From Patescibacteria group bacterium (GTDB lineage Bacteria > Patescibacteriota > Patescibacteriia > 2-01-FULL-39-33): 17,848 nt of DNA. The notes beneath the pieces were generated by a model. That model made no database searches and was not told the origin of the DNA. It was given only the letters and a program-made list of their open reading frames with translations. The first letter of the stretch is position 1, and each line of letters starts with the position of its first letter. Location of the stretch: the NCBI GenBank assembly GCA_041650895.1, contig JBAZKF010000002.1:152425-170272 (forward strand). The letters run 5' to 3'. A program made the position numbers and the translations under genes. Below, one piece after another: positions 1 to 16,216 of this stretch.

Positions 1-2
1 TG

Positions 3-755
3 CTGGATCAGGGCAAGAAGTTTTTGGATTTGCTGAAAAAATTCGAAGTTGAGGAATTTCGGTTAATTGAGGATGATCCGATGCCGGAAGGCCAATATGA
101 CGTTTGTTTGGTTGAAGGCAATCCGGTGACCAAGGAGAATATCAAACTGCTTAAGGCCATGCGCGAACGTTCCAAATTTTTAATCGTTTTGGGTAACTGC
201 GCGGCGCTGGGCGGCGTTTGGGAAATTAAGAATTATCAGGATAAGAAAAAAACCATCAGGTATGTCTATCAGAACTCCGCCAAAGTGGAGAATCCTGATA
301 TCAAAGAAGTGGATAATTTTGTTGAAGTGGATTTGACTATTCCCGGCTGTCCCGTAACCGGTAGCGAGATGTTGGAGATGATTTATCAGCTTTTGTCCGG
401 CAAAATGCCGCGTCTTCCGCAAAGCCCGGTGTGTTGGGAATGCCAGACTAAGGGCTATGAATGCTTGTTGCAAAAAGGTATGATTTGTCTGGGGCCGATT
501 ACTTTGGGCGGCTGTCAGGCGGTTTGCCTGAAAAGCAAACAGCCGTGCTGGGGCTGTCGTGGGCTGTTTGAGGGCGCGCAAGTCAAGAATCATTTTAATT
601 ATTTGACGGCCAATTTCCCTCGTCAACAAGCTTATCGCGTGATGGAAGTTTTTGGCGTTCGCGACTCAATCTTAAAGTCATTGGTTAAAGGAAACAAAAC
701 AACTAAAGGATTAAGGAATAAAAAGGGAGGAATAAAGATAAATAAGAAAAAATAA
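3..755 (+). CDS. [NiFe]-hydrogenase small (electron-transfer) subunit, cytosolic group-3 type (delta-like); 5'-partial at window edge
   Basis: The frame is open from nt 3, so the N-terminal proximal-cluster CxxC region must lie upstream of the window (first in-frame ATG at 24). Small-subunit motifs are present: LVEGNP...LGNCAALGG, GCPVTGSEM, and a C-terminal Cys cluster CWEC...C...C...GGCQAVC...CWGC typical of the extra [4Fe-4S] clusters. It sits directly upstream of the large-subunit gene. The C-terminal tail is unusually Lys-rich (KGNKTTKGLRNKKGGIKINKKK). Confidence 0.75.
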   Translation: MDQGKKFLDLLKKFEVEEFRLIEDDPMPEGQYDVCLVEGNPVTKENIKLLKAMRERSKFLIVLGNCAALGGVWEIKNYQDKKKTIRYVYQNSAKVENPDIKEVDNFVEVDLTIPGCPVTGSEMLEMIYQLLSGKMPRLPQSPVCWECQTKGYECLLQKGMICLGPITLGGCQAVCLKSKQPCWGCRGLFEGAQVKNHFNYLTANFPRQQAYRVMEVFGVRDSILKSLVKGNKTTKGLRNKKGGIKINKKK

Positions 756-757
756 TT

Positions 758-1012
758 ATGTCAATAGAAACCAGAACCGGGACGGAGGAAGAATTAACAG
801 CTCGCAATAGAATGCAGAGAATGTTATTCGGTCAGTATTTGGCGGAGGGCAAGGTAAGCGAAACCGACCCCGAGACCATGAAAAAGATTTTTACGCAAGT
901 GAGTGATATCTTAGACGGTGATAATCCGGCTTACGACAGTATTCGCATCGCTTTCAAGTCCGGAGATTATGACGCTACGGTTTCCATGTTAAAGACTGTT
1001 GTTGAATTGTAA
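758..1012 (+). CDS. hypothetical small acidic protein (84 aa) encoded between hydrogenase small and large subunit genes
   Basis: ORF from the six-frame track. Its ATG lies 2 nt after the small-subunit stop, and it ends 12 nt before the large-subunit ATG, an operon-like tight packing. No Cys and no recognisable domain. Coding status rests on position and length only. Confidence 0.45.
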   Translation: MSIETRTGTEEELTARNRMQRMLFGQYLAEGKVSETDPETMKKIFTQVSDILDGDNPAYDSIRIAFKSGDYDATVSMLKTVVEL

Positions 1013-1024
1013 ATATTTTAGTTT

Positions 1025-2323
1025 ATGCAAATAAAAGTCAATCACATCGGCAAAATGGAGGGGCACTCCGATTTTGTGGCCGAAATCATTAAGGGCAAAG
1101 TGTCTTCGGCTAAGGTAATGACTACCGAAGGCGCGCGTTTGATCGAGGGCATTTTGGTCGGCCGGAATTTTGATGAAGCGCCGATTATTACCGCCCGCAT
1201 CTGCGGTATCTGTCCGGTGGTGCATAAGATTTCTTCGGTCAAGTCATTGGAGAATGCCTTAAATATCAAGCCGAGCGAGCAGACAATCAAATTGAGAAAA
1301 GCCATGCTGTGCGCTCAACTGATCCACAGCCACGCTTTGCATTTGTTTTTTTTGTCTTTGCCGGACTTTTTTGACATCACTAATGATTTACAGTTCATCG
1401 GCCAATATAAAAAAGAAACCGAGAGCGCTATTCGAGTGCGCGATTGGGCGCTGAAGACAATTGAAGTCATCGGTGGCAGAGCGGTGCATCCTATCGCCTG
1501 CGAAGTCGGCGGATTCAAGGTTTTGCCGGAAAAGTCCGAGTTGGCTGAGTTGGCCGGCCGTTATCAGTCAGTCCTAAAAGACGCCTTGGTTCTGGTTAAT
1601 ATGGCGCTGAAAATCAATTTGCCCAGATTCAGCCGTCCCACAACTTTTGTGGCCTTAACTCAGGGTGATGAATATGCCTATTATGGTGGCGACTTGAAGG
1701 TGTTATATCCCGGTGGCAAGACTAAGACGATCAAAGCCAAGGATTTTACTAAGAATATTAAGGAGATTGAGGAACCGTATCGCGCCGCTAAGTCGGCCAA
1801 GCTGGACGGCAAACCGTTTATGGTTGGCGCTTTGGCGCGGATAAACATTAATCATGACAAATTAAATCCTTTGGCAGCTGGAATATTCAAGAGTTTAAAG
1901 TGGCGCTTGCCCCAGTACAACACTTTTAATAATATTATTTGCCAGGCAGTAGAGATAGTCCATTTTACGGAAGAATTAGACCGCTTGCTGGAGGAGCTGT
2001 CGACAGAGTTAAAGCCGGAAGCAAGCCGAGGTCAAGAGCTTAGTCTTATTGCCCGCGCCAATCCGTTGAGTCGAGTCACTGCCGGCGTTGACGCTTGCGA
2101 GGCGCCGCGTGGGACGCTGTATCATTCTTACAAATTAGATAAAAACGGATTGATTACCGATTGCCAGATCATTACTCCGACCGTGTCTTTCTTGAAAAAT
2201 TTGGAGGCGGACATCAAGCAATATTTGCCGGGAATAAAAGATATGCCGGAGAAAAAGCGCGCCATTAGGATTCGCGCCCTGATTCGCGCCTATGATCCGT
2301 GCATTGCCTGCGCCACTCATTAA
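1025..2323 (+). CDS. [NiFe]-hydrogenase large (catalytic) subunit
   Basis: N-terminal L1 motif RICGICPVVH (RxCGxCxxxH) and C-terminal L2 motif DPCIACATH (DPCxxCxxH) are both present. At 432 aa the length fits cytosolic group-3 enzymes. The protein stops immediately after the L2 histidine. Confidence 0.9.
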   Translation: MQIKVNHIGKMEGHSDFVAEIIKGKVSSAKVMTTEGARLIEGILVGRNFDEAPIITARICGICPVVHKISSVKSLENALNIKPSEQTIKLRKAMLCAQLIHSHALHLFFLSLPDFFDITNDLQFIGQYKKETESAIRVRDWALKTIEVIGGRAVHPIACEVGGFKVLPEKSELAELAGRYQSVLKDALVLVNMALKINLPRFSRPTTFVALTQGDEYAYYGGDLKVLYPGGKTKTIKAKDFTKNIKEIEEPYRAAKSAKLDGKPFMVGALARININHDKLNPLAAGIFKSLKWRLPQYNTFNNIICQAVEIVHFTEELDRLLEELSTELKPEASRGQELSLIARANPLSRVTAGVDACEAPRGTLYHSYKLDKNGLITDCQIITPTVSFLKNLEADIKQYLPGIKDMPEKKRAIRIRALIRAYDPCIACATH

Positions 2324-2364: not shown

Positions 2365-2619
2365 ATGCATGATTTTCATTTGGCTGACACGATCTATAAA
2401 GCGATTATCCAGGAAGCCGAAAAAAACAATTTAAAAAAAATCACCAAAGCGGTGATTGAGCTGGGGAGTATTGTGGAACATGGCGAGGAGGTTTTGCCGG
2501 CTAATTTGGATTTTAACATAAAGATGTTAGCAGAGGGAGGGAAAGCGGACGGCTTAAATATTGAAATTGGTAGGTCGTCGGGTAATGAGTGGGTACTTAA
2601 GGAGATCGAAGGGGAGTAA
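2365..2619 (+). CDS. hypA: HypA-like hydrogenase Ni-insertion metallochaperone, truncated variant without the Zn-finger domain
   Basis: Starts with MHD, compared with the canonical HypA N-terminal Ni-binding MHE. The helix-rich N-domain ...KITKAVIELGSI... resembles HypA. The C-terminus GNEWVLKEIEGE aligns to the E. coli HypA C-terminus GDSLIVKSIEVE. It is only 84 aa and has no cysteines, so the CxxC...CxxC Zn module is absent. Confidence 0.5.
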   Translation: MHDFHLADTIYKAIIQEAEKNNLKKITKAVIELGSIVEHGEEVLPANLDFNIKMLAEGGKADGLNIEIGRSSGNEWVLKEIEGE

Positions 2620-2725: not shown

Positions 2726-3904
2726 ATGAAGATAAAATCAATCCGACAAGCAAATAGTCTCAAAGGAAAAAAGGTGCTCATGCGCGCTGATTTTAATGTG
2801 CCTATAACTAAAAATGGCAAAGTTGGACAAAGCGAGGATTTCCGTATTGTCCGAACTGCGCCGACTATCCAGTATTTAATTAAAAAAGGCGCCAAGATAA
2901 TCATTATGGCGCACCTGGGCCGACCGGAAGGAAAAGTTAACCTTAAATATAGTCTGAAGCCGGTGGCCAAAAGATTGTCGCAAATAATCAAGCAGCCGGT
3001 CAAATTGTCGCCGGAAATAATCGGCGTTAAGACTGATAAATTAATCAGTCAGATGAAAAACGGCGAAGTACTATTGTTAGAAAATATCAGGTTTGATAAG
3101 CGCGAGGAACAAGCGAATAATAATTTTGCCCGGGAGCTGGCGAGTTTGGGCGATCTTTATGTTAATGACGGTTTTGCCGTTTCTCATCGTGACCAGGTAT
3201 CGGTTTCTGTTATTCAAGATTTTCTGCCGTCTTATGCGGGATTATTGTTGGAAGATGAAATAAAGTATTTGGGCGGTGTTTTGAAAAATCCTAAGAAGCC
3301 GCTAGTGGTGATTATTGGTGGCGCCAAGATTTCCACTAAGATCAGGGTAATCAAGAATTTTGCCAAGGTGGCGAAGCGGATTTTACTGGGTGGCGCGTTG
3401 GCCAATACGGTGCTGAAAGTTATGGGCGTGTCGGTGGGTAAATCGCCGATTGAGCCGGAAATGTTCGGCGAGGTTAAGAAATTCAAATTGACTGATAATA
3501 ATATTGTAGTGCCGGTTGACGGCGTGATGGCCAATAATTTTAACGCCAAGAAGGGGAGGATGGATGCCTTAGCCGATATTAAGCCGGAAGAATTGATTCT
3601 GGATATCGGACCGGATACTGTAAAACTATATGAAAATATCTTAAAATCGGCTAAAATGGTTATGTGGAATGGGCCGATGGGTTTAATAGAAAACCCGGTC
3701 TTTGCCCGGGGCACTAGGAGCTTGATCAGGATTTTGGCTGGTTCCAAGGCCCAAACCATTGTCGGGGGTGGAGAAACGGTGCAAATGATTCGTAAAATGA
3801 AATTAGAAAATAAATTCAGTTTTATTTCGACCGGCGGGGGAGCGATGTTGGAGTTTTTGGAAGGCAAGAAATTGCCGGGACTTAAAAAATTAGTCAGCAG
3901 ATAA
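2726..3904 (+). CDS. pgk: phosphoglycerate kinase
   Basis: 392 aa with the typical PGK N-terminus (KKVLMRADFNVP, AHLGRP) and a full-length match to the PGK fold. Glycolytic context. Confidence 0.95.
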   Translation: MKIKSIRQANSLKGKKVLMRADFNVPITKNGKVGQSEDFRIVRTAPTIQYLIKKGAKIIIMAHLGRPEGKVNLKYSLKPVAKRLSQIIKQPVKLSPEIIGVKTDKLISQMKNGEVLLLENIRFDKREEQANNNFARELASLGDLYVNDGFAVSHRDQVSVSVIQDFLPSYAGLLLEDEIKYLGGVLKNPKKPLVVIIGGAKISTKIRVIKNFAKVAKRILLGGALANTVLKVMGVSVGKSPIEPEMFGEVKKFKLTDNNIVVPVDGVMANNFNAKKGRMDALADIKPEELILDIGPDTVKLYENILKSAKMVMWNGPMGLIENPVFARGTRSLIRILAGSKAQTIVGGGETVQMIRKMKLENKFSFISTGGGAMLEFLEGKKLPGLKKLVSR

Positions 3905-3925
3905 TAATTAATAATAACAAAAAAT

Positions 3926-4723
3926 ATGGAAGAACAAAAAACATGTTGTACAACTAATGGCATGCACAAATGCCATTGTGCCAAACATATCGTTTTAGCG
4001 ATTTTGGCTGTCGTTTTAATCGTTTATGTCGGCGTCCTAACGCGCAATGCCTGGCGCACTTATGATTATATCGGCAAGTCGCCGGATATGATTAATCAGA
4101 TTACTGTTACCGGCACAGCCAAGGTCAGCGTTACACCCGATATCGCCGTGCTTTATCTGGGCGTTATCAACGAGGGCGCGACGGTCAATCTGGCGCAAAA
4201 AGGCGTGACCGACAAAATGAATGCGATTATTGATTCGCTCAAGAAAGAGTTTAAAATTGACGCCAAAGATATCAAGACGGAAAATTATAGCGTTAATCCC
4301 AAGTATGATTGGACTGACGGCAGGCAACGGATAATCGGTTATTCCGCCAACCAAAGCGTTACTGTTAAAGTCAGGGATTTTGATAAGACCGGGGATATTC
4401 TGGCCAAGGCCACCGAACTCGGCGCTAACACAGTGTCCGGGCCGACTTTTTCTATTGATGATCCGGAAAAAGCCAAAGCCGAAGCGCGAGAAAAGGCCAT
4501 CGCCCAAGCCAAAGAAAAAGCAAGAATATTGGCTGATCAGGTCGGCATTAAATTGGGCCGGATTATTAATTTTTATGAAGGCGGAACAGAATTGCCGAAT
4601 GCAATCTATAGCCGTAGCGACCTGGCTGTCGGCGCCGGCGAGATGAAAGCGGCAGCTCCGACGATTGAACCGGGTAGTCAGGATGTTCAATTGACAGTCA
4701 GTATCAGCTATGAAATAAATTAG
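3926..4723 (+). CDS. SIMPL-domain (DUF541 / BP26-like) membrane-anchored protein with Cys/His-rich N-terminus
   Basis: N-terminal CCTTNGMHKCHCAKH, then one TM helix (IVLAILAVVLIVYVGVL), then the SIMPL-domain pattern (VTGTAKVSVTPD...YSANQSVTVKV...TVSISYEI). Confidence 0.7.
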   Translation: MEEQKTCCTTNGMHKCHCAKHIVLAILAVVLIVYVGVLTRNAWRTYDYIGKSPDMINQITVTGTAKVSVTPDIAVLYLGVINEGATVNLAQKGVTDKMNAIIDSLKKEFKIDAKDIKTENYSVNPKYDWTDGRQRIIGYSANQSVTVKVRDFDKTGDILAKATELGANTVSGPTFSIDDPEKAKAEAREKAIAQAKEKARILADQVGIKLGRIINFYEGGTELPNAIYSRSDLAVGAGEMKAAAPTIEPGSQDVQLTVSISYEIN

Positions 4724-4730
4724 TAATCTT

Positions 4731-5990
4731 ATGACAAAAATAAAGTCCGTTAAGGCGCGAGAAATTTTGGATTCGCGTGGCAATCCAACGGTAGAGGTTG
4801 AGGTGTGCTTGGATAATGGCAAAAAAGCTTGGGCTGGAGTGCCCTCCGGAGCCTCTACGGGCTCGCGTGAAGCCTTGGAACTTCGGGATGGCGATAAACG
4901 GCGATATGGTGGCCAAGGCGTACTTAAGGCCGTAAAAAATATCAACACGGTTATTGCGCCGAAGTTAATAGGATTGGATCCGGCCAAGCAGAAAGAAATT
5001 GACGAACTGATGCTTAAGTTGGACGGTACGGAAAATAAATCCAAGTTAGGCGCTAATGCTATTTTAGGAGTTTCTATGGCAGTGGCGCGTGTTGCGGCTT
5101 TTAGTCAGAACAAATCGCTTTACGTTTATCTTCACAAAAAATATTGGAACAGCAGTAGAATGTCTTTCCCGGTGCCAATGATGAATATTATGAATGGCGG
5201 CGCGCACGCCGGCTGGTCAATTGATATTCAGGAGTTCATGGTGATGCCGCAACAAAAGAATATTAAGGAAGCGATTCGTTGTGGTGCAGAGATTTTCCAT
5301 GTTCTTAAGAAACTTTTGGCTAAAGCCGGTTACCCAGTAACGGTTGGCGATGAAGGCGGTTATGCTCCCAAGCTGACCGGCAATGAAAAGGCCATGGGAT
5401 TGATTGTTTCTGCTATTAGGGGGAGTGGTTATAAACCGGGCCAAGACGTCAGGATAGCTATTGATTCGGCCGCCTCGGAGTTTTTTGATGATAAAGACAA
5501 ACATTATGACATGAAAGCCGATAAGAAAACCAGAACTTCAAAAGAGATGATCAAAATGTACGGCGAATGGATTAAGAAATATCCGATTGAGTCATTGGAA
5601 GACGGTTTGGCTGAAGGGGATTGGCAGGGTTGGGCGGATTTGACTCAGGCCTTGGGCAGGAGGGTTGCTTTGGTTGGCGATGATTTGTTTGTGACTAATT
5701 CCAAAATTCTTCAGGAAGGCATTAATAAGAAAGTGGCCAATGCCATTTTAATCAAATTAAATCAAATTGGCACCCTGACAGAAACAGTAGAGGCGATGAA
5801 ACTGGCGCAAAAAAATAATTATAAGCTGGCGGTCAGTCATAGGAGCGGTGAAACTCCTGATGATTTTATCGCCGATTTGGCCGTAGCTTCTGGCGCCGAG
5901 TACATTAAAACCGGATCGCTTAGCCGGGGTGAAAGAGTCGCTAAGTATAACCGTTTGATGGAAATCTGGGATGAGATGGGTAAAAAATAA
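4731..5990 (+). CDS. eno: enolase (phosphopyruvate hydratase)
   Basis: MTKIKSVKAREILDSRGNPTVEVEV..., SHRSGETEDxFIADLAV-type motif (SHRSGETPDDFIADLAV), 419 aa. Confidence 0.95.
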   Translation: MTKIKSVKAREILDSRGNPTVEVEVCLDNGKKAWAGVPSGASTGSREALELRDGDKRRYGGQGVLKAVKNINTVIAPKLIGLDPAKQKEIDELMLKLDGTENKSKLGANAILGVSMAVARVAAFSQNKSLYVYLHKKYWNSSRMSFPVPMMNIMNGGAHAGWSIDIQEFMVMPQQKNIKEAIRCGAEIFHVLKKLLAKAGYPVTVGDEGGYAPKLTGNEKAMGLIVSAIRGSGYKPGQDVRIAIDSAASEFFDDKDKHYDMKADKKTRTSKEMIKMYGEWIKKYPIESLEDGLAEGDWQGWADLTQALGRRVALVGDDLFVTNSKILQEGINKKVANAILIKLNQIGTLTETVEAMKLAQKNNYKLAVSHRSGETPDDFIADLAVASGAEYIKTGSLSRGERVAKYNRLMEIWDEMGKK

Positions 5991-6006
5991 TTATAGAATA
6001 GGCAAA

Positions 6007-6037
6007 GCACCCGGATTATTCGGGTGTTTTGTGTTTT
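6007..6037 (+). terminator. Rho-independent terminator downstream of eno
   Basis: GC stem CACCCG/CGGGTG around a short loop, followed by TTTTGTGTTTT. Confidence 0.6.
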
Positions 6038-6188
6038 AAAAGGAAATGTGTTATAATAATTTAAGAATTTATTGTTTTTAACTGTTTACTTTTAAGTAAT
6101 TTTCAGCAATTTTACTTGAAAGTTTTTACGTTATAATCTTTGTTATTTAGTGTTTTAAAATTGAAAGTTCTGGCTTTTAGGCCACTTT

Positions 6189-7766
6189 ATGCCTGTAAAA
6201 TCTAAAAAATCACAAAAAACAGAAATCGCTAAAAAAGTTCTTTTGCTCATATTAGACGGTTGGGGAATCGGCAAAGAAGACGGTTCCAATCCGATTTTTT
6301 TAGCTAAACCGAAGTTTATCAATTCTTTGTATAAGAAGTATCCCTGGACGGAATTATGCGCGTCCGGACTTTGCGTCGGTTTGCCGCCAGACCAGGTGGG
6401 AAACTCTGAAGCCGGCCACATGAACTTGGGAGCCGGACGCATTGCCGATCAGGACGTGATTAAGATTTCCAAACACATCGGTACTGGCGAATTTTTCAAG
6501 AACCCCGCTTTTTTGGCGGCTATTAATCACGCCAAAAAGAATAAAACCGCTTTGCATTTGATGGGTATGCTGTCTAACGGCCAGAGTCCCCACAGCGATC
6601 CTGATCATCTTTTGGCTTTACTGACCTTAGTGCGCAAGCATGAGTTAAAAAAAGTTTATTTGCATTTATTTACCGATGGTCGCGATTCACCGCCTATGTC
6701 GGCCTTGAAATCCATCATGGCTTTGGAGCGTTCGCTTAAACCCAATGAGATCATCTCTACGGTTATCGGTCGGTTTTACGCCATGGATCGCAAGAAAGTC
6801 TGGACCAGGACTATCGCGGCTTACAACGCCATGACCGACGGCCGGGATGCGCATTATGCTGACAGTCCTCAGGCCGGCATCGACCGCGCTTACAATGCTA
6901 ATATATCCGATGAATTCATCGAGCCTATTGTCATTAGGCAAAAAGGAAAAATGACGCCGCGTATCAGCGATAATGACGCCATTATTTTCTTTAATTTGCG
7001 CAGCGATCGCGCCAGGCAAATGGCCAAGCCGTTTGTCCAGCATCAATTTGAAGAAAAGAATCCAGGGTTTGTTAAGCGTAAACGAGTATTGCGTAATGTT
7101 TCCTTTGTGGCTATGACTGATTTCGGACCGGATTTGGATAGTATTCTGACCGCTTATCCTTCGGAAGATTTAAAAAACACCTTGCCTATAGTGTTGAAGA
7201 ACAAGAAGCAGATTTATATCGCCGAGAGCGAGAAATACGCTCATGTGACTTTCTTTTTTAATGGTGGTTATGCTGATCCGGTGGGCGGTGAAGAAAGAAT
7301 TAATATTCCTTCGCCTCATGTGGATAGATACGACAAGACGCCGGCTATGTCCACCAAAGGAATAACCAGCAGAATTATTGCTTCATTAAGAAAATACGAT
7401 TTTATCTGCGCCAACATCGCTTGTCCTGATATGATCGGCCACACCGGCAATATGGAAGCGGCGCAAGAAACAGTTAAGGCTGTTGATAAATACGTCAAGC
7501 AAATCGTGGCGGCCGCGCTTAAGAATGATGCCGTGTTGCTCATCACTGCCGATCATGGCAATATAGAATACAAACTCAATTTGGAAACAGGGGAGAGGTT
7601 GACCGAACATACCACTAACCCAGTGCCATTTATTGTTGTAGGTGGCAGTTTCGGCAAGTCGCTAAAATTAAAGCGCGATGGCGTTTTGGGTGATGTCGCC
7701 CCTACTGTTATTAAACTGTTCGGTTTAAATAAACCCAAGGGAATGAGTAAGAATAGCTTGATTTAA
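6189..7766 (+). CDS. gpmI: 2,3-bisphosphoglycerate-independent phosphoglycerate mutase (iPGM), paralog 1 (more diverged)
   Basis: LILDGWG, GNSEAGHMNLGAG (active-site Ser retained), DGRD, GRFYAMDR, FNLRSDRAR, EKYAHVTFFFNGG, DMIGHTGN and ITADHGN motifs. The GGVHSH region is altered to GQSPHS. Confidence 0.9.
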   Translation: MPVKSKKSQKTEIAKKVLLLILDGWGIGKEDGSNPIFLAKPKFINSLYKKYPWTELCASGLCVGLPPDQVGNSEAGHMNLGAGRIADQDVIKISKHIGTGEFFKNPAFLAAINHAKKNKTALHLMGMLSNGQSPHSDPDHLLALLTLVRKHELKKVYLHLFTDGRDSPPMSALKSIMALERSLKPNEIISTVIGRFYAMDRKKVWTRTIAAYNAMTDGRDAHYADSPQAGIDRAYNANISDEFIEPIVIRQKGKMTPRISDNDAIIFFNLRSDRARQMAKPFVQHQFEEKNPGFVKRKRVLRNVSFVAMTDFGPDLDSILTAYPSEDLKNTLPIVLKNKKQIYIAESEKYAHVTFFFNGGYADPVGGEERINIPSPHVDRYDKTPAMSTKGITSRIIASLRKYDFICANIACPDMIGHTGNMEAAQETVKAVDKYVKQIVAAALKNDAVLLITADHGNIEYKLNLETGERLTEHTTNPVPFIVVGGSFGKSLKLKRDGVLGDVAPTVIKLFGLNKPKGMSKNSLI

Positions 7767-7769
7767 ATT

Positions 7770-9362
7770 ATGACTGATAGCAAAAACAAACGACTTAAAC
7801 CGGTAATACTGATGATTTTGGATGGTTGGGGAGCGGCCCCGCCTTCAAGATCCAATGCCATTACTCTGGCCAAAACGCCGGGGGTGACAGGATTAATAAA
7901 AACTTATCCGGCTTTGACTTTACAGGCCTCGGGCGAAGCCGTGGGCTTGTCTTGGGGGGAAATTGGCAACTCTGAAGTCGGGCATCTTAATTTGGGCTCG
8001 GGCAAGCTGGTTTACCAGAATTTGCCGCGCATTAATAAATCCATTTCTGACGGCGCCTTTTTTGAGAATGAAAAGTTTATCAATGCCATAAAACACGCTA
8101 AGAAAAACAAAGGCAAAGTTCATTTGCTGGGGTTGATTTCTTCGGGCGGCGTGCACAGCCATATTGATCATTTATTCGCTTTGTTGGAGCTGTGTCAGAA
8201 AGAAAAATTCCGCGAGGTATATATTCATGGCGTTTTGGACGGCCGTGACATGCCCTATAATTCCGGCATTGATTTTGTGGAAAAAATAAAAAACAAATCC
8301 GAGGAATTGGGTGTCGGCCGCATTGCCACTCTGTCCGGCCGGTTTTATGCTATGGATCGCGACAATCATTGGGAGCGCATCGTTCTGGCTTATAACGCCA
8401 TGGTCAAAGGTGAAGCCACGGAAAGATTCAGTGATCCGAGCGAGGCGGTCAGCGCTTCTTACGATAAAAAGATCTATGATGAGGAATTTGTGCCGGTAGT
8501 GATCGAAGATGGCGGCCGGCCTGTGGCCACCATCGCCCCCGGCGATGCCGTGATATTTTTTAATTTTCGCGCGGATCGCGCTCGAGAGATTTCCAAAGCG
8601 TTCGTTTTGCCCGGTTTTGAAAAGTTTGAACGGCAATATTTGAAAGATTTATATTTCGTGGCTATGACCGAATACGAGAAGGATGTCCCGATGGAAGTCG
8701 CTTTTCCTCCTGAAACCATTAAAGATCCGTTGGCTAAGGTTATAGCCGATGCCGGCCTAACTCAATTGCATATCGCGGAGACGGAGAAATACGCCCACGT
8801 CACTTTTTTCTTTAATGGCGGTACCGAGCAGGAATTTACCGGTGAAGACAGGGTGTTGGTGCCGTCGCCACGCGTGTCTTCTTATGCGGAGAAGCCGGAA
8901 ATGTCAGCCAAGGAAGTGACGCAGAAAACCATCGACGCTATTATGGCTGATAAGTATGATTTTATTGTGTTGAATTTTGCCAATTGTGATATGGTCGGCC
9001 ATACTGGAGACTTAAAAGCCACAATCAAAGCCGTGGAAGCAGTGGACAGTTGCGTCAAAAAAATCACAGAAGTGGTTTTGGCCAAAGGCGGAGCGGCCTT
9101 AATTACCGCTGATCATGGCAATGCCGAGGAGTTGCTCAATTTACAATCAGGCGAAATAGACAAGGAACACAGCACTTATCCGGTACCGCTTATTATCGTC
9201 GGCAAGGAATGGGAGGGTAAGAACGCCGGTTTTCCGGAAGTGCCTGGCGGTGATCTATCTTTGGTTCAGCCGGCTGGCATACTGTCCGATGTGGCACCGA
9301 CGATTATCAAGATTATGGGGCTCGAACAGCCGGCGGAAATGACCGGTAAACCGTTGATTTAA
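7770..9362 (+). CDS. gpmI: 2,3-bisphosphoglycerate-independent phosphoglycerate mutase (iPGM), paralog 2 (canonical)
   Basis: ILDGWG, GNSEVGHLNLGSG, SSGGVHSHIDHL, DGRD, GRFYAMDRD, FNFRADRARE, EKYAHVTFFFNGG, DMVGHTGD and ITADHGN. Starts 3 nt after paralog 1. Confidence 0.9.
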   Translation: MTDSKNKRLKPVILMILDGWGAAPPSRSNAITLAKTPGVTGLIKTYPALTLQASGEAVGLSWGEIGNSEVGHLNLGSGKLVYQNLPRINKSISDGAFFENEKFINAIKHAKKNKGKVHLLGLISSGGVHSHIDHLFALLELCQKEKFREVYIHGVLDGRDMPYNSGIDFVEKIKNKSEELGVGRIATLSGRFYAMDRDNHWERIVLAYNAMVKGEATERFSDPSEAVSASYDKKIYDEEFVPVVIEDGGRPVATIAPGDAVIFFNFRADRAREISKAFVLPGFEKFERQYLKDLYFVAMTEYEKDVPMEVAFPPETIKDPLAKVIADAGLTQLHIAETEKYAHVTFFFNGGTEQEFTGEDRVLVPSPRVSSYAEKPEMSAKEVTQKTIDAIMADKYDFIVLNFANCDMVGHTGDLKATIKAVEAVDSCVKKITEVVLAKGGAALITADHGNAEELLNLQSGEIDKEHSTYPVPLIIVGKEWEGKNAGFPEVPGGDLSLVQPAGILSDVAPTIIKIMGLEQPAEMTGKPLI

Positions 9363-11075: not shown

Positions 11076-11798
11076 ATGACTGAGAAATTAATAGAAGTTA
11101 AGGATTTAAAAAAAGACTACGTTAATGACGAGGTGGTAACGTCAGTGCTTCATGGCGTAAGTTTCGATATTCATCAGGGGGAATTCGTGGCCATCATGGG
11201 GCCGTCCGGTTCGGGTAAATCCACCTTGATGCATATCTTGGGATTTTTGGATAATCTGACTTCCGGCCGTTTTATTTTTAAAGGGCGTGATGTCAGTAAT
11301 TTGGAGGAAGATGAGCTGGCGCGCATTAGAAATGAGGAAGTCGGGTTTGTCTTTCAAGCCTTTCATTTGTTGCCCAAGACTTCGGTGTACAATAATGTCA
11401 GATTGCCCTTGCTTTACGGTACAGCTAAGAATATTGATGAATTGGTCAAATCGGCGATTCGGGCCGTCGGCTTAGAACACCGTACTAATAATTTTTCCAA
11501 TCAGCTCTCCGGCGGAGAAAAACAAAGAGTGGCTATTGCCCGCGCCCTGGTCAATAATCCGTCAATTATTTTTGCCGATGAGCCGACCGGCAACTTGGAT
11601 AGTAAATCGGGCAATGCTATTATGGAGATTCTGGAAGATTTAAACGACGCCGGCCATACGATTATCCTGGTTACCCACGAAACCGATACGGCCAAACATG
11701 CTAAGCGCATCATCAAAATAGTGGATGGCCTGATTGCCGAAGATTACAATGTCGCTGATCGCCGCAGCGCCAAGAATGGCGGACAGCTGATGAAATAA
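11076..11798 (+). CDS. ABC transporter ATP-binding protein (MacB/LolD/YknY-type)
   Basis: Walker A GPSGSGKST, ABC signature LSGGEKQRVAIARAL, Walker B IIFADEPTGNLD, H-loop THE. Confidence 0.9.
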   Translation: MTEKLIEVKDLKKDYVNDEVVTSVLHGVSFDIHQGEFVAIMGPSGSGKSTLMHILGFLDNLTSGRFIFKGRDVSNLEEDELARIRNEEVGFVFQAFHLLPKTSVYNNVRLPLLYGTAKNIDELVKSAIRAVGLEHRTNNFSNQLSGGEKQRVAIARALVNNPSIIFADEPTGNLDSKSGNAIMEILEDLNDAGHTIILVTHETDTAKHAKRIIKIVDGLIAEDYNVADRRSAKNGGQLMK

Positions 11799-11799
11799 C

Positions 11800-13035
11800 A
11801 TGCGATTTACCGAAACTGTAAAATTATCATTTTCTGTTTTGCGCACCAATCGGACGCGCAGTTTTTTGACTTCGCTGGGGATTATTATCGGCATTGCCGC
11901 TGTCATCGTGATTATTTCTGCCGGTGCCGGTGCGCAATCGCTCATCGTTAATCAATTCAATGCTATTGGCACCAATTTGATTGGCATTCTGCCCGGTGCC
12001 AGCGACGAGAACGGCCCGCCTGCTTCGGCTTTTGGCATTATTCTACAGACGCTTAAATATGAAGACGCTCAGGCTATTGTGCAAATAGTATCGCATGTTA
12101 CTGCTGTCTCCTCTTATAATACCGGCGTAGCTACGGCGTCTTACCAGAGTTCCAAAACAGATATCACTTATTACGGTGTTATGCCTGACTATCTACTGGT
12201 TGAGGAAACGGAAGTGGAGAAGGGGAGATTTTTCGGCGATGACGAGGATCGGGGAAGCTCCAAAGTTGCCGTGTTGGGCTGGCAGGTGGCGCAGGATCTG
12301 TTCGACGGTCAGGAAGCTGTCGGCCGCAAGATGAAAATCGGCAAAGAATCTTTTGAAGTGATCGGGGTGATGCGTAAACGCGGCGTCTCCGGTTTTCAAA
12401 ATAACGATAGTATTATTCTGATTCCGGCACAGACCGCGCAAAAGATAATGCTGGGCGTACGCCATGTTAATTTTATTCGCGCCAAAGTGGATCAGCAAGA
12501 GAATTTGTCGCAAGTAGTGGAGGATATTCGCTTTTTGTTGCGTGATCGCCATAACTTATTAGAATCAAAGGTTGACGATTTCAATATCCGCAACACGGCC
12601 GACGCTATTAAGACGCTGACTTCCATTACTGACGTGCTGAAGTTTTTTTTGGCCGCAATCGCCAGTATTTCTTTGTTAGTCGGCGGTGTGGGCGTAATGA
12701 ACATTATGTTGGCCTCGGTTAATGAGCGTGTCCGCGAAATCGGCTTGCGCAAAGCTGTCGGCGCCAAGTCCAATGATATTATGGTTCAGTTTTTGGCCGA
12801 GTCGGTTACTGTTACTTTAGCCGGAGGCGTTATTGGCATTATTATCGGTTCGTTGATTTCCGCCTTAGTCGCCGTAGTTGCCAAATATTTGGGTTATGAT
12901 TGGGATTTAGTAGTTTCTCCGCTGTCAATATTCATGGGTTTTGGCGTAGCTTTTATTGTCGGTTTAATTTTTGGCATTTACCCGGCTCAGCGTGCGGCCA
13001 AACTCAACTCCATTGAGGCGCTAAGATGGGAGTAA
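11800..13035 (+). CDS. ABC transporter permease, FtsX/MacB family (YknZ-like)
   Basis: N-terminal TM helix, a large extracytoplasmic domain, then three C-terminal TM helices with the FtsX-like core. Its start is 1 nt after the ATPase stop. Confidence 0.85.
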   Translation: MRFTETVKLSFSVLRTNRTRSFLTSLGIIIGIAAVIVIISAGAGAQSLIVNQFNAIGTNLIGILPGASDENGPPASAFGIILQTLKYEDAQAIVQIVSHVTAVSSYNTGVATASYQSSKTDITYYGVMPDYLLVEETEVEKGRFFGDDEDRGSSKVAVLGWQVAQDLFDGQEAVGRKMKIGKESFEVIGVMRKRGVSGFQNNDSIILIPAQTAQKIMLGVRHVNFIRAKVDQQENLSQVVEDIRFLLRDRHNLLESKVDDFNIRNTADAIKTLTSITDVLKFFLAAIASISLLVGGVGVMNIMLASVNERVREIGLRKAVGAKSNDIMVQFLAESVTVTLAGGVIGIIIGSLISALVAVVAKYLGYDWDLVVSPLSIFMGFGVAFIVGLIFGIYPAQRAAKLNSIEALRWE

Positions 13036-13077
13036 TAAGTTTTATTATTAGTCATTAATTATTAATTATTAGTTAAC

Positions 13078-13108
13078 AAATCGCTTATTTTGGGGCGATT
13101 TTTTTATT
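13078..13108 (+). terminator. Rho-independent terminator after the efflux operon
   Basis: Stem AAATCGC / GCGATTT with a 10-nt loop, followed by a run of 8 or more T. Confidence 0.5.
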
Positions 13109-13168
13109 TTATTTTGTCTAATTTTAGTCATTTATTTATAATTAAATCAAAAATAGGGGATAAAACAC

Positions 13169-13197
13169 TTGACAAAATATTTAAGGTGTGATATAAT
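13169..13197 (+). promoter_or_regulatory. near-consensus sigma70 promoter with extended -10 (TTGACA-17-TGaTATAAT)
   Basis: TTGACA at 13169-13174, a 17-nt spacer, TGATATAAT at 13189-13197. Predicted start site about 13204. It drives the GC-rich island. Confidence 0.65.
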
Positions 13198-13203
13198 AGT
13201 TTA

Positions 13204-13870
13204 TTCAAGATAGTGGTTGTGGATAACTGAACAAAATTCAATTATTGACAATATTATCTTGTGGCAGCTTAAAAGCTGTTTTAAGAGAACCTTCGGGTTC
13301 TTTGTCAGGGCGTCAGGCGGCTTATGTCGTGTGTCGCCCTTGACAAAGGTTCCGAATAATGGAACTCTGAATGTTAATTAAAAAAATATTCGCGGCAGCT
13401 TGTCGCCGCGTCGATATGATTAAGGCGTATGCTTGTCCGCCTAAATCCGATCCAAGGTCTAAAGCCGAGGATCTTAGGAGGAGATTAAGCTGAAGAGGGG
13501 GCCTGGCTTGAAATTATATATTCGCCAATCGCCTTAATTCACTTCTTCAAGTCTTGATTATATCGATGCGGTAGCAATGTCTGGCCGTCTAAGCAGGCGG
13601 GCAAACGCGCGCTGCAAGTACTTTCGAAGGAAGATTTTCCCCACCGCGTCGGGCTTTTATCCCGCCGGATCGGTAGACCTCCTCCTTTCCCCGGGGAGGC
13701 GTTATGTAGCGATACATGCGCCTCCCCCACACGCCTCAGACAGTATGGTTCGAGAGCATATAATCAAATCCTCACAAAGGAAGCTTGGTTTTACGCTTAC
13801 GGCCGGGGTACTGTTTGAGGCGTGTGTTGCAAAAAAGCATTTTTCATTTTACGTTACGAGTAATCTCGTG
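13204..13870 (+). ncRNA. candidate large structured non-coding RNA / structured 5' leader (class unknown), GC-rich
   Basis: No ORF with a plausible translation start. Many GC-rich helices are readable directly: GAACC-UUCG-GGUUC (UUCG tetraloop); CTTTGTCAGGGCG...CGCCCTTGACAAAG long-range helix; CGCGGC...GCCGCG; GGGGAGGCG-[AUGUA-GCGA-UACAU]-CGCCUCCCC (nested GNRA hairpin); CACACGCCTCA...TGAGGCGTGTG (an 11-bp helix enclosing about 65 nt). By eye the GC content is roughly 55-60%, against about 40-45% in the flanking genes. Confidence 0.4.
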
Positions 13871-13880
13871 AAGGAGGCCT

Positions 13881-14078
13881 ATGATAGTACAATGTTGCGT
13901 TTGTCGTAGGGTGCGTTTGTCTGGCGTGTCTGGCGTCTCTTGGGCGGAGCAAGCCATACCACCCGGTGAGGATGTTTCCCATGGCTACTGCCCGGAATGC
14001 GCCGCAAAAGCGTATGAGGGCATGGAGAGGGAATTGACCAACCGGCACCAAAGGAGCCCGACTGATGGCAAAGGGTAA
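13881..14078 (+). CDS. small 4-Cys zinc-ribbon protein (65 aa), paralog 1
   Basis: AAGGAGG sits 3-4 nt upstream of the ATG. Pattern CxxC-x12-W-x15-YCPEC-x4-AY. Low-complexity repeats occur in the N-terminal part, which lowers confidence. Confidence 0.45.
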   Translation: MIVQCCVCRRVRLSGVSGVSWAEQAIPPGEDVSHGYCPECAAKAYEGMERELTNRHQRSPTDGKG

Positions 14079-14253
14079 GTGCCCGGCTTGTTTTAAAATC
14101 GAAGTGGCGCCGGGGCAGTGGAAAAACACCGCCTTACCGGTCAAAGAAGAAACATTGCCCAAATACTGTCCGAGATGTAGCGAGCATAACGCTTATGTCC
14201 GGGAGAGCATTCGGGTATCCAAGGAGTTGGCGGGCGGCGCGTCGGGAAAATAG
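14065..14253 (+). CDS. small 4-Cys zinc-ribbon protein (62 aa), paralog 2, translationally coupled to paralog 1
   Basis: AAGGAG sits 8 nt upstream of the ATG. The start overlaps the end of paralog 1 (ATGGCAAAGGGTAA). Pattern CPAC-x9-W-x15-YCPRC-x4-AY has the same W-to-YCPxC spacing as paralog 1. Confidence 0.5.
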   Translation: MAKGKCPACFKIEVAPGQWKNTALPVKEETLPKYCPRCSEHNAYVRESIRVSKELAGGASGK

Positions 14254-14265
14254 AACATTCTGTTA

Positions 14266-14303
14266 GGAGGAAGCCGCGCGGCTTCCTCCTTTAAAATTGA
14301 TTT
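14266..14303 (+). terminator. strong GC-rich Rho-independent terminator ending the GC-rich island
   Basis: AGGAGGAAGCCGC|GCGGCTTCCTCCT is a perfect 13-nt inverted repeat (14266-14291), followed by TTTAAAATTGATTTTGATTT. Confidence 0.65.
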
Positions 14304-14412
14304 TGATTTATCCACAGCCAAGCTCTTGACACTGTATTGTTTTTATAAAAATTTAATATATAATTTTATATTAAGGGATGACATTAAGCATCAGGCATTT
14401 TCAATCGCACTT

Positions 14413-14450
14413 TCCTAAAAATTTTTTTAGGATCACACTCAAGTGTGATT
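14413..14450. repeat. two adjacent hairpins: AT-palindrome TCCTAAAAA-TT-TTTTTAGGA and ATCACAC-TCAA-GTGTGAT
   Basis: Read directly from the sequence. A GC terminator follows. Confidence 0.6.
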
Positions 14451-14476
14451 TCGAAAATTCCCGTTGCGTCTTCTCC

Positions 14477-14510
14477 GAGTCCCGCCCATGTGGCGGGACT
14501 TTTAATTGGC
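14477..14510 (+). terminator. Rho-independent terminator (GAGTCCCGCC-loop-GGCGGGACTT + TTTT)
   Basis: 8-10 bp GC stem 14477-14500 followed by TTTTAATTGG. Together with the two upstream hairpins this may define a short structured transcript. Confidence 0.55.
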
Positions 14511-14535
14511 TGATTTTGTTAATTGGTGTTATAAT
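14506..14535 (+). promoter_or_regulatory. putative promoter with extended -10 (TGTTATAAT) for the small membrane protein gene
   Basis: TGTTATAAT at 14527-14535, weak -35 TTGGCT at 14506-14511, ATG at 14557. Confidence 0.4.
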
Positions 14536-14556
14536 TTAATCAGGTAATCAAATCAT

Positions 14557-14934
14557 ATGTCACTCAAACAACTAATTATCATCGTCAGTATCGCCACTCT
14601 ACTTTGCTGGGCCAGTTGGTTGCTAGTTATCTTTGAAGTGGATCCGACAACCGCCGGCTTTTACGGCCTACTGATTTTTTATGCCAGCATGTTTTTGTCT
14701 TTGCTTGGTTTGTTTTTCCTGATCAGTTTCGGCTTTCGCAAATTATTCAATAAGCTGGAAATGGAATACAAGCTGGTGGGCATGTCTTTCCGCCAATCAT
14801 TTTTCTTCTCCTTGGCCGTCGTGGGATTCTTTTTCCTGCAGAGCAAGGATTTATTGACTTGGTGGAACAGCATTTTGCTGGTTTTGGCTCTGGTGATTTT
14901 GGAATTTTTCTTTTTGAGTTATCGGAAGAAATAG
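14557..14934 (+). CDS. small integral membrane protein (125 aa, about 4 TM helices), unknown function
   Basis: Four hydrophobic segments. Bracketed by its own promoter and a strong terminator. No recognisable motif. I checked for CrcB-like sequence and found none. Confidence 0.55.
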   Translation: MSLKQLIIIVSIATLLCWASWLLVIFEVDPTTAGFYGLLIFYASMFLSLLGLFFLISFGFRKLFNKLEMEYKLVGMSFRQSFFFSLAVVGFFFLQSKDLLTWWNSILLVLALVILEFFFLSYRKK

Positions 14935-14944
14935 TATAGCGTTA

Positions 14945-14975
14945 GCCGTCCCGTTGGTCGGGGCGGTTTTTTTAT
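14945..14975 (+). terminator. Rho-independent terminator (GCCGTCCCG-TTGGT-CGGGGCGG + TTTTTTT)
   Basis: 8-bp GC stem, 5-nt loop, 7-T run immediately downstream of the stop at 14934. Confidence 0.7.
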
Positions 14976-15025
14976 TATTTTTTTCTCCTTTAGGAAGAAG
15001 AAGATTAAGAGGGGCTTATTTTCAT

Positions 15026-15094
15026 GATACTTTTCTCTAGAGAAAAGTATCACCAAAGAGTCGCGAGCGAATAAAATCATGGCTAGATTTTTTA
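15026..15094. repeat. repeated intergenic element, copy 1: 26-bp perfect palindrome GATACTTTTCTC-TA-GAGAAAAGTATC + AGTCGCGA + hairpin AAAATC-ATGGCTA-GATTTT
   Basis: Palindrome at 15026-15051 (centre TCTAGA). AGTCGCGA at 15059-15066. Hairpin at 15073-15091. The element aligns over about 60 nt with 16542-16606. Confidence 0.7.
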
Positions 15095-15118
15095 CTCCGC
15101 AATATTTTTAATAGCCAT

Positions 15119-15148
15119 TTGACTAAAACTTGTTAAATTGGTTATAAT
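15119..15148 (+). promoter_or_regulatory. sigma70-type promoter for pheS (TTGACT-17/18-TATAAT), near-leaderless transcript
   Basis: TTGACT at 15119-15124, TATAAT at 15143-15148, ATG at 15158, no SD. Confidence 0.6.
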
Positions 15149-15157
15149 ATATTCAAT

Positions 15158-16216
15158 ATGAAAGAAAAACTCAGCCAATTAAAGGCGCAATTCACCGAGG
15201 AATCGGCAAAGGTCAAATCAGCTTCCGAGCTGGAAGAATTGGAGAATAGATTTTTGAGCCGTAAAAGTGGATTGCTGACCGGCATCATGAAGGGGATCAA
15301 AGATGTGGCTAAAGAAGAGGTGGCGGAAATCGGCGCCTTGGCTAATGAAACCAAAGATTATATTGTTGAGGGACTGGAAACACTTAAGGGAAACTTGGGC
15401 GGTATCGGTTCCTCTAATTTCGATTTTACCGTACCCGGCCGCAAGCCGGCTGTCGGCCATTTGCATTTAGCCACCATTGCCATTCGCGAGATTGAAAGTA
15501 TCCTAGAGCCGTTAGGCTTCGTCAGGACGCGCCATCCGGATGTAGAATGGGATTATTATGCTTTTGAAACTTTGAACATGCCCGGCGATCATCCGGCTCG
15601 CGATGACTGGGAAACCTTTTTTATTGATGATTCTCCGATCAAGATGAATTTGCCGGCTAATTCAAAGAAATTAGTCAAAGAGGGGAGACGATTACTAACT
15701 CCTCATACTTCTAGCATTCAGGTACGGGAAATGGAGAGGGGCGTTCTGCCGATTCGGATGATGAATATTTCCAAATGCTATCGTCGGCAGATTGATGTTT
15801 CTCATGTGCCGATGTTCCATCAATTTGAGGGGCTAGTGATTGACAAGGGGATTAATATTACTCACTTGAAGGGCACGATTGATTATTTTGTTAAGAAATT
15901 TTTCGGCGAGGATCGCACAATTCGTTTGCGGCCGCATCATTTTCAATTCACTGAGCCGAGTTTTGAAGTGGATATTTCCTGCGGACTCTGCCATGGCGCA
16001 GGTTGCAAGATGTGTAAAGAGGGTTGGTTGGAGCTGGCTGGCGCCGGCATGGTTCATCCAAATGTGCTTAAAGCCGGCGGCATTGATCCGGAGAAGTATT
16101 CGGGTTTTGCTTTCGGCTGGGGTGTCGAGCGATGCTATTCCATGAAGTCGGACCTGAATATTGATGATTTAAGGTTGATGTATAAGAATGATTTGAGGTT
16201 TAATGAGCAGTTTTAG
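15158..16216 (+). CDS. pheS: phenylalanine--tRNA ligase alpha subunit
   Basis: Class II aaRS motifs: PHHFQFTEPSFEVD, the Cys cluster ISCGLCHGAGCKMCKEGW (as in Bacillus PheS), GWLELAGAGMVHPNVL, SGFAFGWGVERCYSM, DLRLMYKNDLRF. No pheT follows within the window. Confidence 0.95.
   Translation: MKEKLSQLKAQFTEESAKVKSASELEELENRFLSRKSGLLTGIMKGIKDVAKEEVAEIGALANETKDYIVEGLETLKGNLGGIGSSNFDFTVPGRKPAVGHLHLATIAIREIESILEPLGFVRTRHPDVEWDYYAFETLNMPGDHPARDDWETFFIDDSPIKMNLPANSKKLVKEGRRLLTPHTSSIQVREMERGVLPIRMMNISKCYRRQIDVSHVPMFHQFEGLVIDKGINITHLKGTIDYFVKKFFGEDRTIRLRPHHFQFTEPSFEVDISCGLCHGAGCKMCKEGWLELAGAGMVHPNVLKAGGIDPEKYSGFAFGWGVERCYSMKSDLNIDDLRLMYKNDLRFNEQF

Follow-up and report, generated by a model that had tools for sequence, protein, structure and literature searches.

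Standard accounts of [NiFe]-hydrogenase assembly treat C-terminal processing of the large subunit as its last checkpoint, with the sensor, CooH, Ech and 4g enzymes as exceptions. Two reviews name groups 2b, 2d, 4c, 4e and 4g, and not 3b, as the only naturally extension-less groups. Naturally tail-less hydrogenases mature with the standard Hyp machinery, and an engineered tail-less version of the R. eutropha membrane-bound hydrogenase is active (PMC7294309; PMC12134894). The hydrogenases of the candidate phyla radiation (CPR) are classed as group 3b in the searchable text of Jaffe et al. 2020 (PMC7304191) and of Valentin-Alvarado et al. 2024 (PMC10811913), and the former defines two CPR-specific group-3b clades, 'hyd1' and 'hyd2'. 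Here, we describe a [NiFe]-hydrogenase large subunit from a Patescibacteria group bacterium, probably of the Buchananbacteria; its reading frame stops at its last metal ligand. The gene lies in a 17,848-nucleotide stretch of contig JBAZKF010000002.1, which is referred to below as the window. The features on which the argument rests are the following.

1025..2323, + strand: [NiFe]-hydrogenase large (alpha) subunit, predicted group-3b type, 432 amino acids, without C-terminal extension (Pfam NiFeSe_Hases)
1196..1225, + strand: N-terminal metal-ligand motif RICGICPVVH, amino acids 58-67, with Cys60 and Cys63 (sequence reading)
2294..2320, + strand: C-terminal metal-ligand motif DPCIACATH, amino acids 424-432, with Cys426, Cys429 and the final His432 (sequence reading)
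2321..2323, + strand: TAA stop, immediately 3' of the His432 codon (sequence reading)
2365..2619, + strand: 84-amino-acid HypA-like protein, Ni-domain only, with an N-terminal MHD motif, no cysteines and no Zn site (Pfam HypA)

The large subunit, its C-terminus and its maturation

The product of 1025-2323 matches the PF00374 profile at E 1.2e-39 (137 bits against a cutoff of 25.8) and contains both CxxC pairs of the family, RxCGxCxxxH and DPCxxCxx(H/R). Alignment A1 shows no variation at R58, I59, C60, C63 and H67 of the first motif or at D424, P425, C426, C429 and H432 of the second. His432 corresponds to the final residue of the mature P. furiosus chain 9e1j_B and to residue 424 in the 428-residue precursor chains of reference 3b enzymes. 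The translated product is the form that is left after cleavage in tailed relatives, with all four Ni/Fe cysteine ligands intact. A public database protein identical to it over 100% of positions is entitled 'MAG: Ni/Fe hydrogenase subunit alpha [Patescibacteria group bacterium]', MAG standing for metagenome-assembled genome. The absence of the tail is real, and neither an assembly nor an annotation artefact.

To which group does the enzyme belong? The operon was compared with L001, a Logan contig of the same sequence, with L087 and L088 from a ~90% relative (90% for the large subunit P0002, 91% for the DUF6390 protein P0291), and with more distant relatives at L082-L085 and L089 (down to 55%). 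The best PDB matches of the large subunit are T. kodakarensis HyhL (5yxy) and P. furiosus SHI alpha, both over the full length at E ~1e-62, while other subgroups score more weakly (1e-44 for Mvh of group 3c; ~1e-34 or weaker for Frh of group 3a and for the NAD-reducing enzymes of group 3d). Sulfhydrogenase families are the top NCBIfam matches of all four subunits: sulfhyd_HydA and ShyA for alpha, HydB, ShyB and AsrA for beta (with Pfam Fer4_22), ShyC, HydG and AsrB for gamma (with NAD_binding_1 and DHODB_Fe-S_bind), and ShyD and HydD for delta. All four subunits fall well short of the equivalog cutoffs (the large subunit reaches 223 bits where 880 are required), so the enzyme is predicted to be a distant relative of these families and not a member. 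The complete alpha-beta-gamma-delta gene set is present in L001, L083, L084, L087 and L089; the window itself holds only delta and alpha. By the PDB and NCBIfam comparisons the large subunit is closest to characterized 3b enzymes, and with the operon content this predicts a cytosolic group-3b-type (sulfhydrogenase-like) alpha subunit of a CPR clade. An NAD(P)-linked H2 or sulfur-reducing activity is the prediction that follows from the 3b assignment.

How widespread is the missing tail? Of the 120 best database matches, two are fragments; the remaining 118 are full-length homologues of 50-100% identity, and every one of them terminates at this His. The stop directly after the His is conserved in orthologues, and the window protein is extension-less in this sense. 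A library clustered at 50% identity gave a broader view: its 150 nearest representatives comprise 43 tail-less and 83 tailed sequences and 24 that are fragments or lack the motif, a tail-less share of 43/126 among those bearing the motif. By source name, the tail-less representatives also include Thermoleophilia, Korarchaeota and Archaeoglobi MAGs. In a GTDB sample of at least 80 loci, picked with one peptide pattern and readable to the stop in 79 cases, 16 of the 79 are tail-less. Their CPR labels are Komeili-, Moranii- and Saccharibacteria and Patescibacteria MAGs; other labels are Archaeoglobales, Actinobacteria, Thermodesulfovibrionales, Aerophobetes, Nitrospira and Dehalococcoidales. Two of these loci, L004 and L006, have no Patescibacteria label and were counted as CPR since their large subunits resemble Moraniibacteriota ones.

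In a neighbor-joining tree of large subunits, computed without bootstrap support, tail-less sequences fall mainly into one large grouping with a few scattered among the tailed ones, and the nearest neighbor has the same tail state in 96 of 103 sequences. The grouping contains a query-type subclade ending in DPCI[SA]CATH and a second subclade ending in DPCITCSVH, which includes small-large subunit fusions. Among the predicted proteins compared, then, the tail-less state is normal within the clade and reappears in other parts of 3b, in roughly a fifth to a third of related enzymes. A trait peculiar to this genome is ruled out by the clade-wide occurrence and by the tail-less lineages outside the CPR.

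Tails of the tailed cluster representatives are mostly 4-14 residues long and of the FLEVKFV type, and that of the Thermococcales reference measures 4 residues (His 424 in a 428-residue precursor). The step from tailed to tail-less is small, since the reference 3b tail has only 4 amino acids, and the short range of 3b tail lengths makes repeated loss plausible; tail loss has probably recurred several times within 3b-type enzymes.

Several fusions were seen among these sequences. In P0129, P0146 and P0246, of the tail-less sister clade, a short small-subunit domain is joined to the large subunit. The tailed P0208 and P0254 run on past the tail into a HycI endopeptidase domain, and P0132, also tailed, is a large-FmdE fusion that continues into the FmdE domain.

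Do these organisms encode a maturation endopeptidase? In tailed loci, the large subunit usually has directly downstream of it a gene of ~150-200 amino acids that encodes a GxGNxxxxDDGxG motif. A hidden Markov model (HMM) was built from such genes and iterated once, with a calling threshold of E < 1e-10; four of its seeds were confirmed as Pfam HycI (PF01750) at E 1e-15 to 1e-27. The search took in each locus and, as far as its contig reached, up to 10 kb of flanking sequence. A HycI-family gene was found in 41/63 tailed versus 0/16 tail-less GTDB loci (Fisher p = 1e-6) and, where at least 1 kb of downstream flank was available, in 38/55 versus 0/12. The window, L001 and L082-L085 gave no HMM match at E <= 10. 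Because no residue follows the His, there is nothing for a HycI/HybD-type protease to cleave. Given the absence of both the tail and a protease gene in tail-less loci, protease-independent maturation is the natural reading of these gene complements, and a well supported one.

The gene that starts 41 nucleotides past the large-subunit stop, at 2365, encodes a protein beginning MHDFHLAD, which contains an MHE-type nickel motif and the Ni-domain of HypA. Pfam HypA (PF01155) matches it at E 5e-6 over positions 1-67 of 112, with 26.9 bits under a gathering cutoff of 28.9, and NCBIfam HypA families match at profile positions 1-64 only. The best PDB match is T. kodakarensis HypA 3a43, a weak alignment to residues 1-86 (E 0.013). 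The two CxxC motifs of the HypA zinc site are absent: neither the 84-amino-acid protein nor any of the 82-91-amino-acid CPR copies contains a cysteine. Because it has no cysteines and scores under the Pfam cutoff, it should be named HypA-like, Ni-domain only. All Patescibacteria-type tail-less loci of the query-like clade (L001-L008, L010, L082-L085) have such a Cys-free copy downstream of the large subunit, either adjacent to it or no more than ~0.6 kb away, and most CPR copies keep the MHD motif.

Are the loss of the tail and the loss of the Zn domain linked? Short HypA-like proteins of 77-91 amino acids without CxxC also occur at L017:12244-12501, L039:19527-19787, L069:3673-3954 and L078:11752-12012, beside tailed, protease-equipped 3b hydrogenases of Hadarchaeota, WOR-1 and Omnitrophota. 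Copies outside the CPR have 0-2 cysteines. In L009, a tail-less locus of the Archaeoglobales, the HypA is normal and contains two CxxC motifs. These loci rule out a strict tie between tail loss and a Zn-less HypA, and their gene content indicates that the two are not mechanistically coupled.

The initial annotation had described a large subunit of a cytosolic group-3 enzyme terminating exactly at the DPCxxCxxH histidine beside a Zn-less HypA, and from this had proposed protease-independent maturation. The TAA directly after the DPCIACATH codons, the group-3b type, the Cys-free gene directly after the large subunit and the lack of an endopeptidase gene in the window, L001, L082-L085 and the 16 tail-less loci all agree with it. 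What does not survive is its view of the trait as unusual for 'this organism' and unexpected for group 3: the close homologues lack the tail throughout, as do several non-CPR 3b-type lineages. Routine tail-lessness among close homologues is the very outcome that the initial annotation had named as its refutation.

How might such an enzyme be matured? Most probably, the clade translates its large subunit, the group-3b-type alpha of an alpha-beta-gamma-delta enzyme, in an already 'processed' state. The canonical Cys2 HypC encoded upstream in the operon (MCLTVP...) would deliver Fe(CN)2CO, and the minimal HypA-like protein encoded directly downstream would deliver nickel through its MH(D/E) motif without a Zn domain. 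The C-terminal His would then fold in and the active site close without a proteolytic checkpoint, like the sensor (2b/2d), CooH (4c) and Ech (4e) enzymes. Several points weigh against this. Tail-less versions engineered from R. eutropha's soluble hydrogenase (group 3d) and from E. coli Hyd-2 are nickel-free according to work cited in PMC7294309, so that tail-independence is not automatic in group 3; by analogy, the CPR clade must presumably carry compensating features that make the tail dispensable. In the lineage of the window itself, the 10-kb neighborhoods showed no HypD, HypE, HypF or HypB gene. An endopeptidase may be encoded elsewhere in the genome, though it would be without a substrate. 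The lack of bootstrap support in the tree and the single peptide pattern behind the GTDB sample count on the same side.

The operon and a possible alternative maturation route

The operon reads, in order, beta, gamma, a methyltransferase-like protein, a 47-52-amino-acid membrane peptide, HypC, DUF6390, small subunit, an 84-amino-acid open reading frame (ORF) termed orf84, large subunit and the 84-amino-acid HypA-like protein. In CPR operons, the slot between the gamma and small subunits takes one of two forms: HypC followed by DUF6390 (L001, L084, L087), the latter having a HypC-like domain of its own, or a single HypC-radical-SAM fusion (L083, L089). Representative copies of the fusion are the following.

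L083:7936-9201 and L089:10001-11281: HypC (MCYAIPGK...) fused to a HydE-like radical-SAM/BATS enzyme, in CPR relatives
L012:15586-16881 and 16878-18254: fusion and HydG, non-CPR
L048:12395-13873 and 14033-15487: fusion and HydG, non-CPR
L078:12127-13425 and 14202-15704: fusion and HydG, non-CPR

Could it be that these lineages mature their [NiFe] enzymes by a non-canonical route, of which the missing tail is one symptom? The parts of such a route would be the minimal Zn-less HypA, no HypB, no endopeptidase, and either the fusion (accompanied by HydG in other phyla) or the pair of HypC and DUF6390, which would replace some or all of HypD, HypE and HypF for the Fe-CO/CN moiety. We hold this to be doubtful, although it is the alternative with the most in its favor. 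Besides the place of HypC plus DUF6390 or the fusion in the gamma-small slot, the fusion passes the NCBIfam HydE equivalog cutoff (TIGR03956; 267 versus 254.6 bits) and does so in L083 and L012. Its architecture is common: at least 1430 database proteins match it at E <= 1e-20, many of them on contigs that match hydrogenase contigs in size, and 119 of the 120 matches listed carry HypC and radical-SAM Pfam domains, the exception being an N-terminally shortened copy of 395 amino acids. The fusion is found in the group-3b operons of L039, L069 and L080 as well. At 3b loci outside the CPR (Scalindua, Nitrospirae, Omnitrophota), a bona fide HydG comes after the fusion, scoring 460-523 bits where the cutoff is 312, and no [FeFe] HydA or HydF motif was found near these fusion/HydG loci. 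Moreover, no HypD, HypE or HypF lies within 10 kb in loci with the fusion or DUF6390, and over the same distance loci with HypD and HypE have neither.

Against this route stand the non-CPR fusion/HydG loci themselves, which have tailed subunits and endopeptidases, so that the module is unlinked to tail loss. The CPR fusions were seen without a HydG nearby. The view is one of 10-kb neighborhoods, and HypD, HypE, HypF and HypB may lie elsewhere in the genomes. Furthermore, the 10-kb surroundings of DUF6390 in L086, and those of the HypC-radical-SAM fusion in L090 and L091, contain no hydrogenase; the idea of either as an obligate hydrogenase partner is weakened accordingly.

Canonical HypC-HypD-HypE genes stand beside the hydrogenase in three tail-less loci, L004, L006 and L021, with HypF too in L004 and L006, which rules out a CPR lacking the Hyp pathway altogether; HypB was seen in no CPR locus. 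The streamlined maturation pathway proposed in the initial annotation is therefore borne out in part only: the tail, a protease gene at the locus and the HypA Zn domain are indeed missing, but canonical HypC-D-E(-F) is retained in these three loci.

Searches of the literature returned nothing specific on HypC-HydE fusions, on DUF6390 or on radical-SAM-assisted [NiFe] maturation. As a tentative and rather improbable extension, many 3b hydrogenases, CPR ones included, may mature by an undescribed route based on HypC-HydE or DUF6390 and a mini-HypA, which would be protease-free in the CPR. The HypC-HydE-like fusion has a short HypA-like gene directly upstream in L039 and L069 and ~80 nucleotides upstream in L078.

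Remaining alternatives and neighboring genes

Next in order is a catalytically dead or sensor-type homologue (HupUV/HoxBC sensors, Ehr-type), for which tail-lessness would be expected. H2 sensors are typically tail-less, and the CPR also encode Ehr-like proteins without cysteines, as given in the searchable text of PMC7304191. We consider this very unlikely for the window's enzyme: none of the four ligand cysteines varies, nor do the L1 and L2 motifs, the nearest structures and families are those of 3b and not of group 2, and the operon, which is syntenic with glycolysis genes, contains the diaphorase beta and gamma subunits, HypC and the HypA-like protein and no kinase or regulator.

There is next to no chance that the tail was lost through misassembly, a frameshift or gene calling, or is added through stop-codon read-through, even though the sequence derives from a MAG and seven sense codons (FCRLNHN) follow the TAA in frame before another stop: the 118 independent homologues, from many assemblies, share the final residue, the stop codon varies among related CPR loci (TAA, TAG, TGA), and the in-frame sequence beyond it differs among relatives, with a second stop after one codon in the 90% relative, so that no hidden read-through tail is indicated. 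UGA recoding exists in some CPR lineages; it is irrelevant to 1025-2323 because the stop is TAA and not TGA. An enzyme translated in its processed form is the reading that we retain.

Other features of the window and of its relatives are as follows.

1..755, + strand: hydrogenase small (delta) subunit, 3' part, ORF cut by the left window edge (Pfam Oxidored_q6, E 1e-18)
758..1012, + strand: orf84, between the small and large subunit genes, without family (no Pfam/NCBIfam match)
6189-7766 and 7770-9362: iPGM paralogues, tandem
L001:992-1552 and 1578-1721; L083:7275-7790 and 11420-11860; L089:9317-9980: methyltransferase-like / LiaF-like peptide ORFs

The full-length small subunit has 273 amino acids (L001:2691-3512). 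With an HMM of the 758-1012 ORF, copies turned up in L001, L084 and L085 only, each time at this position. A gene of 84 amino acids and no assigned family occupies the small-large slot of L087 and L088, and orf84 is missing in L082, L083 and L089, where the small and large subunit genes overlap or abut. Between the gamma gene and HypC, a SAM-methyltransferase-like protein of 170-186 amino acids and a LiaF-like membrane peptide of 47-52 amino acids are conserved; the best NCBIfam match of the former is an archaeal protein-lysine N-methyltransferase (E 4e-15), and in L083 a second methyltransferase-like ORF lies between the large subunit and the HypA-like gene. The operon of a 55% relative includes a CbiM-type Ni/Co transporter gene (L084:4950-5648).

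Downstream of the hydrogenase operon, window positions 2726-9362 encode PGK, a SIMPL/DUF541 protein, enolase and the two iPGM paralogues. The same linkage of hydrogenase and glycolysis genes persists in CPR relatives whose large subunits are as little as 55% identical (L082-L085, L087-L089). The ~2 kb at 13036-15157 hold only short ORFs without family matches (13577-13909, 14557-14934), and tRNA and Rfam scans of the window, this region included, gave no match.

Relation to known hydrogenases

Why does a missing tail of a few residues matter? The exception to C-terminal processing now reaches group 3, with a whole cytosolic 3b clade and offshoots in other phyla that have neither a tail nor a protease at the locus. 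Annotation of hydrogenases in CPR or DPANN MAGs should not demand a maturation protease, and naturally 'pre-processed' 3b enzymes with a small accessory set may be simpler to express heterologously. The unusual accessory genes around the operons are a more interesting lead than the tail loss itself. No prior statement on tail-less 3b enzymes or on CPR maturation proteases was found in the literature searched, and the searchable text of PMC7304191 and PMC10811913 makes no mention of the C-terminus of CPR 3b enzymes.

Among described enzymes, the SHI/HyhL hydrogenases of the Thermococcales (5yxy, 9e1j, 9nez) are the best match. They share the L1 and L2 cysteine motifs and the alpha-beta-gamma-delta set, with a sulfite-reductase-like beta and an FAD/NAD gamma subunit. 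Identity to the probable Thermococcales representatives in A1 is only ~30-31%, and their precursors carry the 4-residue tail past the His (428 versus 424 amino acids) where the window protein has none. In the Thermococcales, a HybD-type protease removes this tail. The accessory proteins differ in a similar way. The window's HypA-like protein resembles HypA (PF01155; T. kodakarensis HypA 3a43) in its N-terminal MH(E/D) nickel motif, in the Ni-domain fold region and in its place beside the large-subunit gene. It measures 84 amino acids against 113-139 and, having no cysteines, lacks the CxxC...CxxC zinc domain that mediates the HypB interaction and that T. kodakarensis HypA possesses.

Within the CPR, the window's enzyme resembles hyd1, as far as the searchable text of PMC7304191 describes it, in a small subunit of ~270 amino acids, the presence of beta and gamma, and a HypC-like family nearby; a likeness to hyd2 is seen in the tail-less sister clade, whose small subunits are short or fused. 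That text is silent on the C-terminus, the protease, the HypA-like gene, DUF6390 and the HypC-radical-SAM fusion.

In maturation, the predicted likeness is to the extension-less HoxC/HupV (2b, 2d), CooH (4c), EchE (4e) and 4g subunits, whose products likewise end at the His/Arg of DPCxxCxx(H/R) and for which no dedicated endopeptidase and an otherwise standard Hyp machinery are reported (PMC7294309; PMC12134894). These belong to other phylogenetic groups and have other subunit partners than the window's 3b-type enzyme. Group 3b joins them in the known category of naturally extension-less [NiFe] large subunits, a modest and incremental addition.

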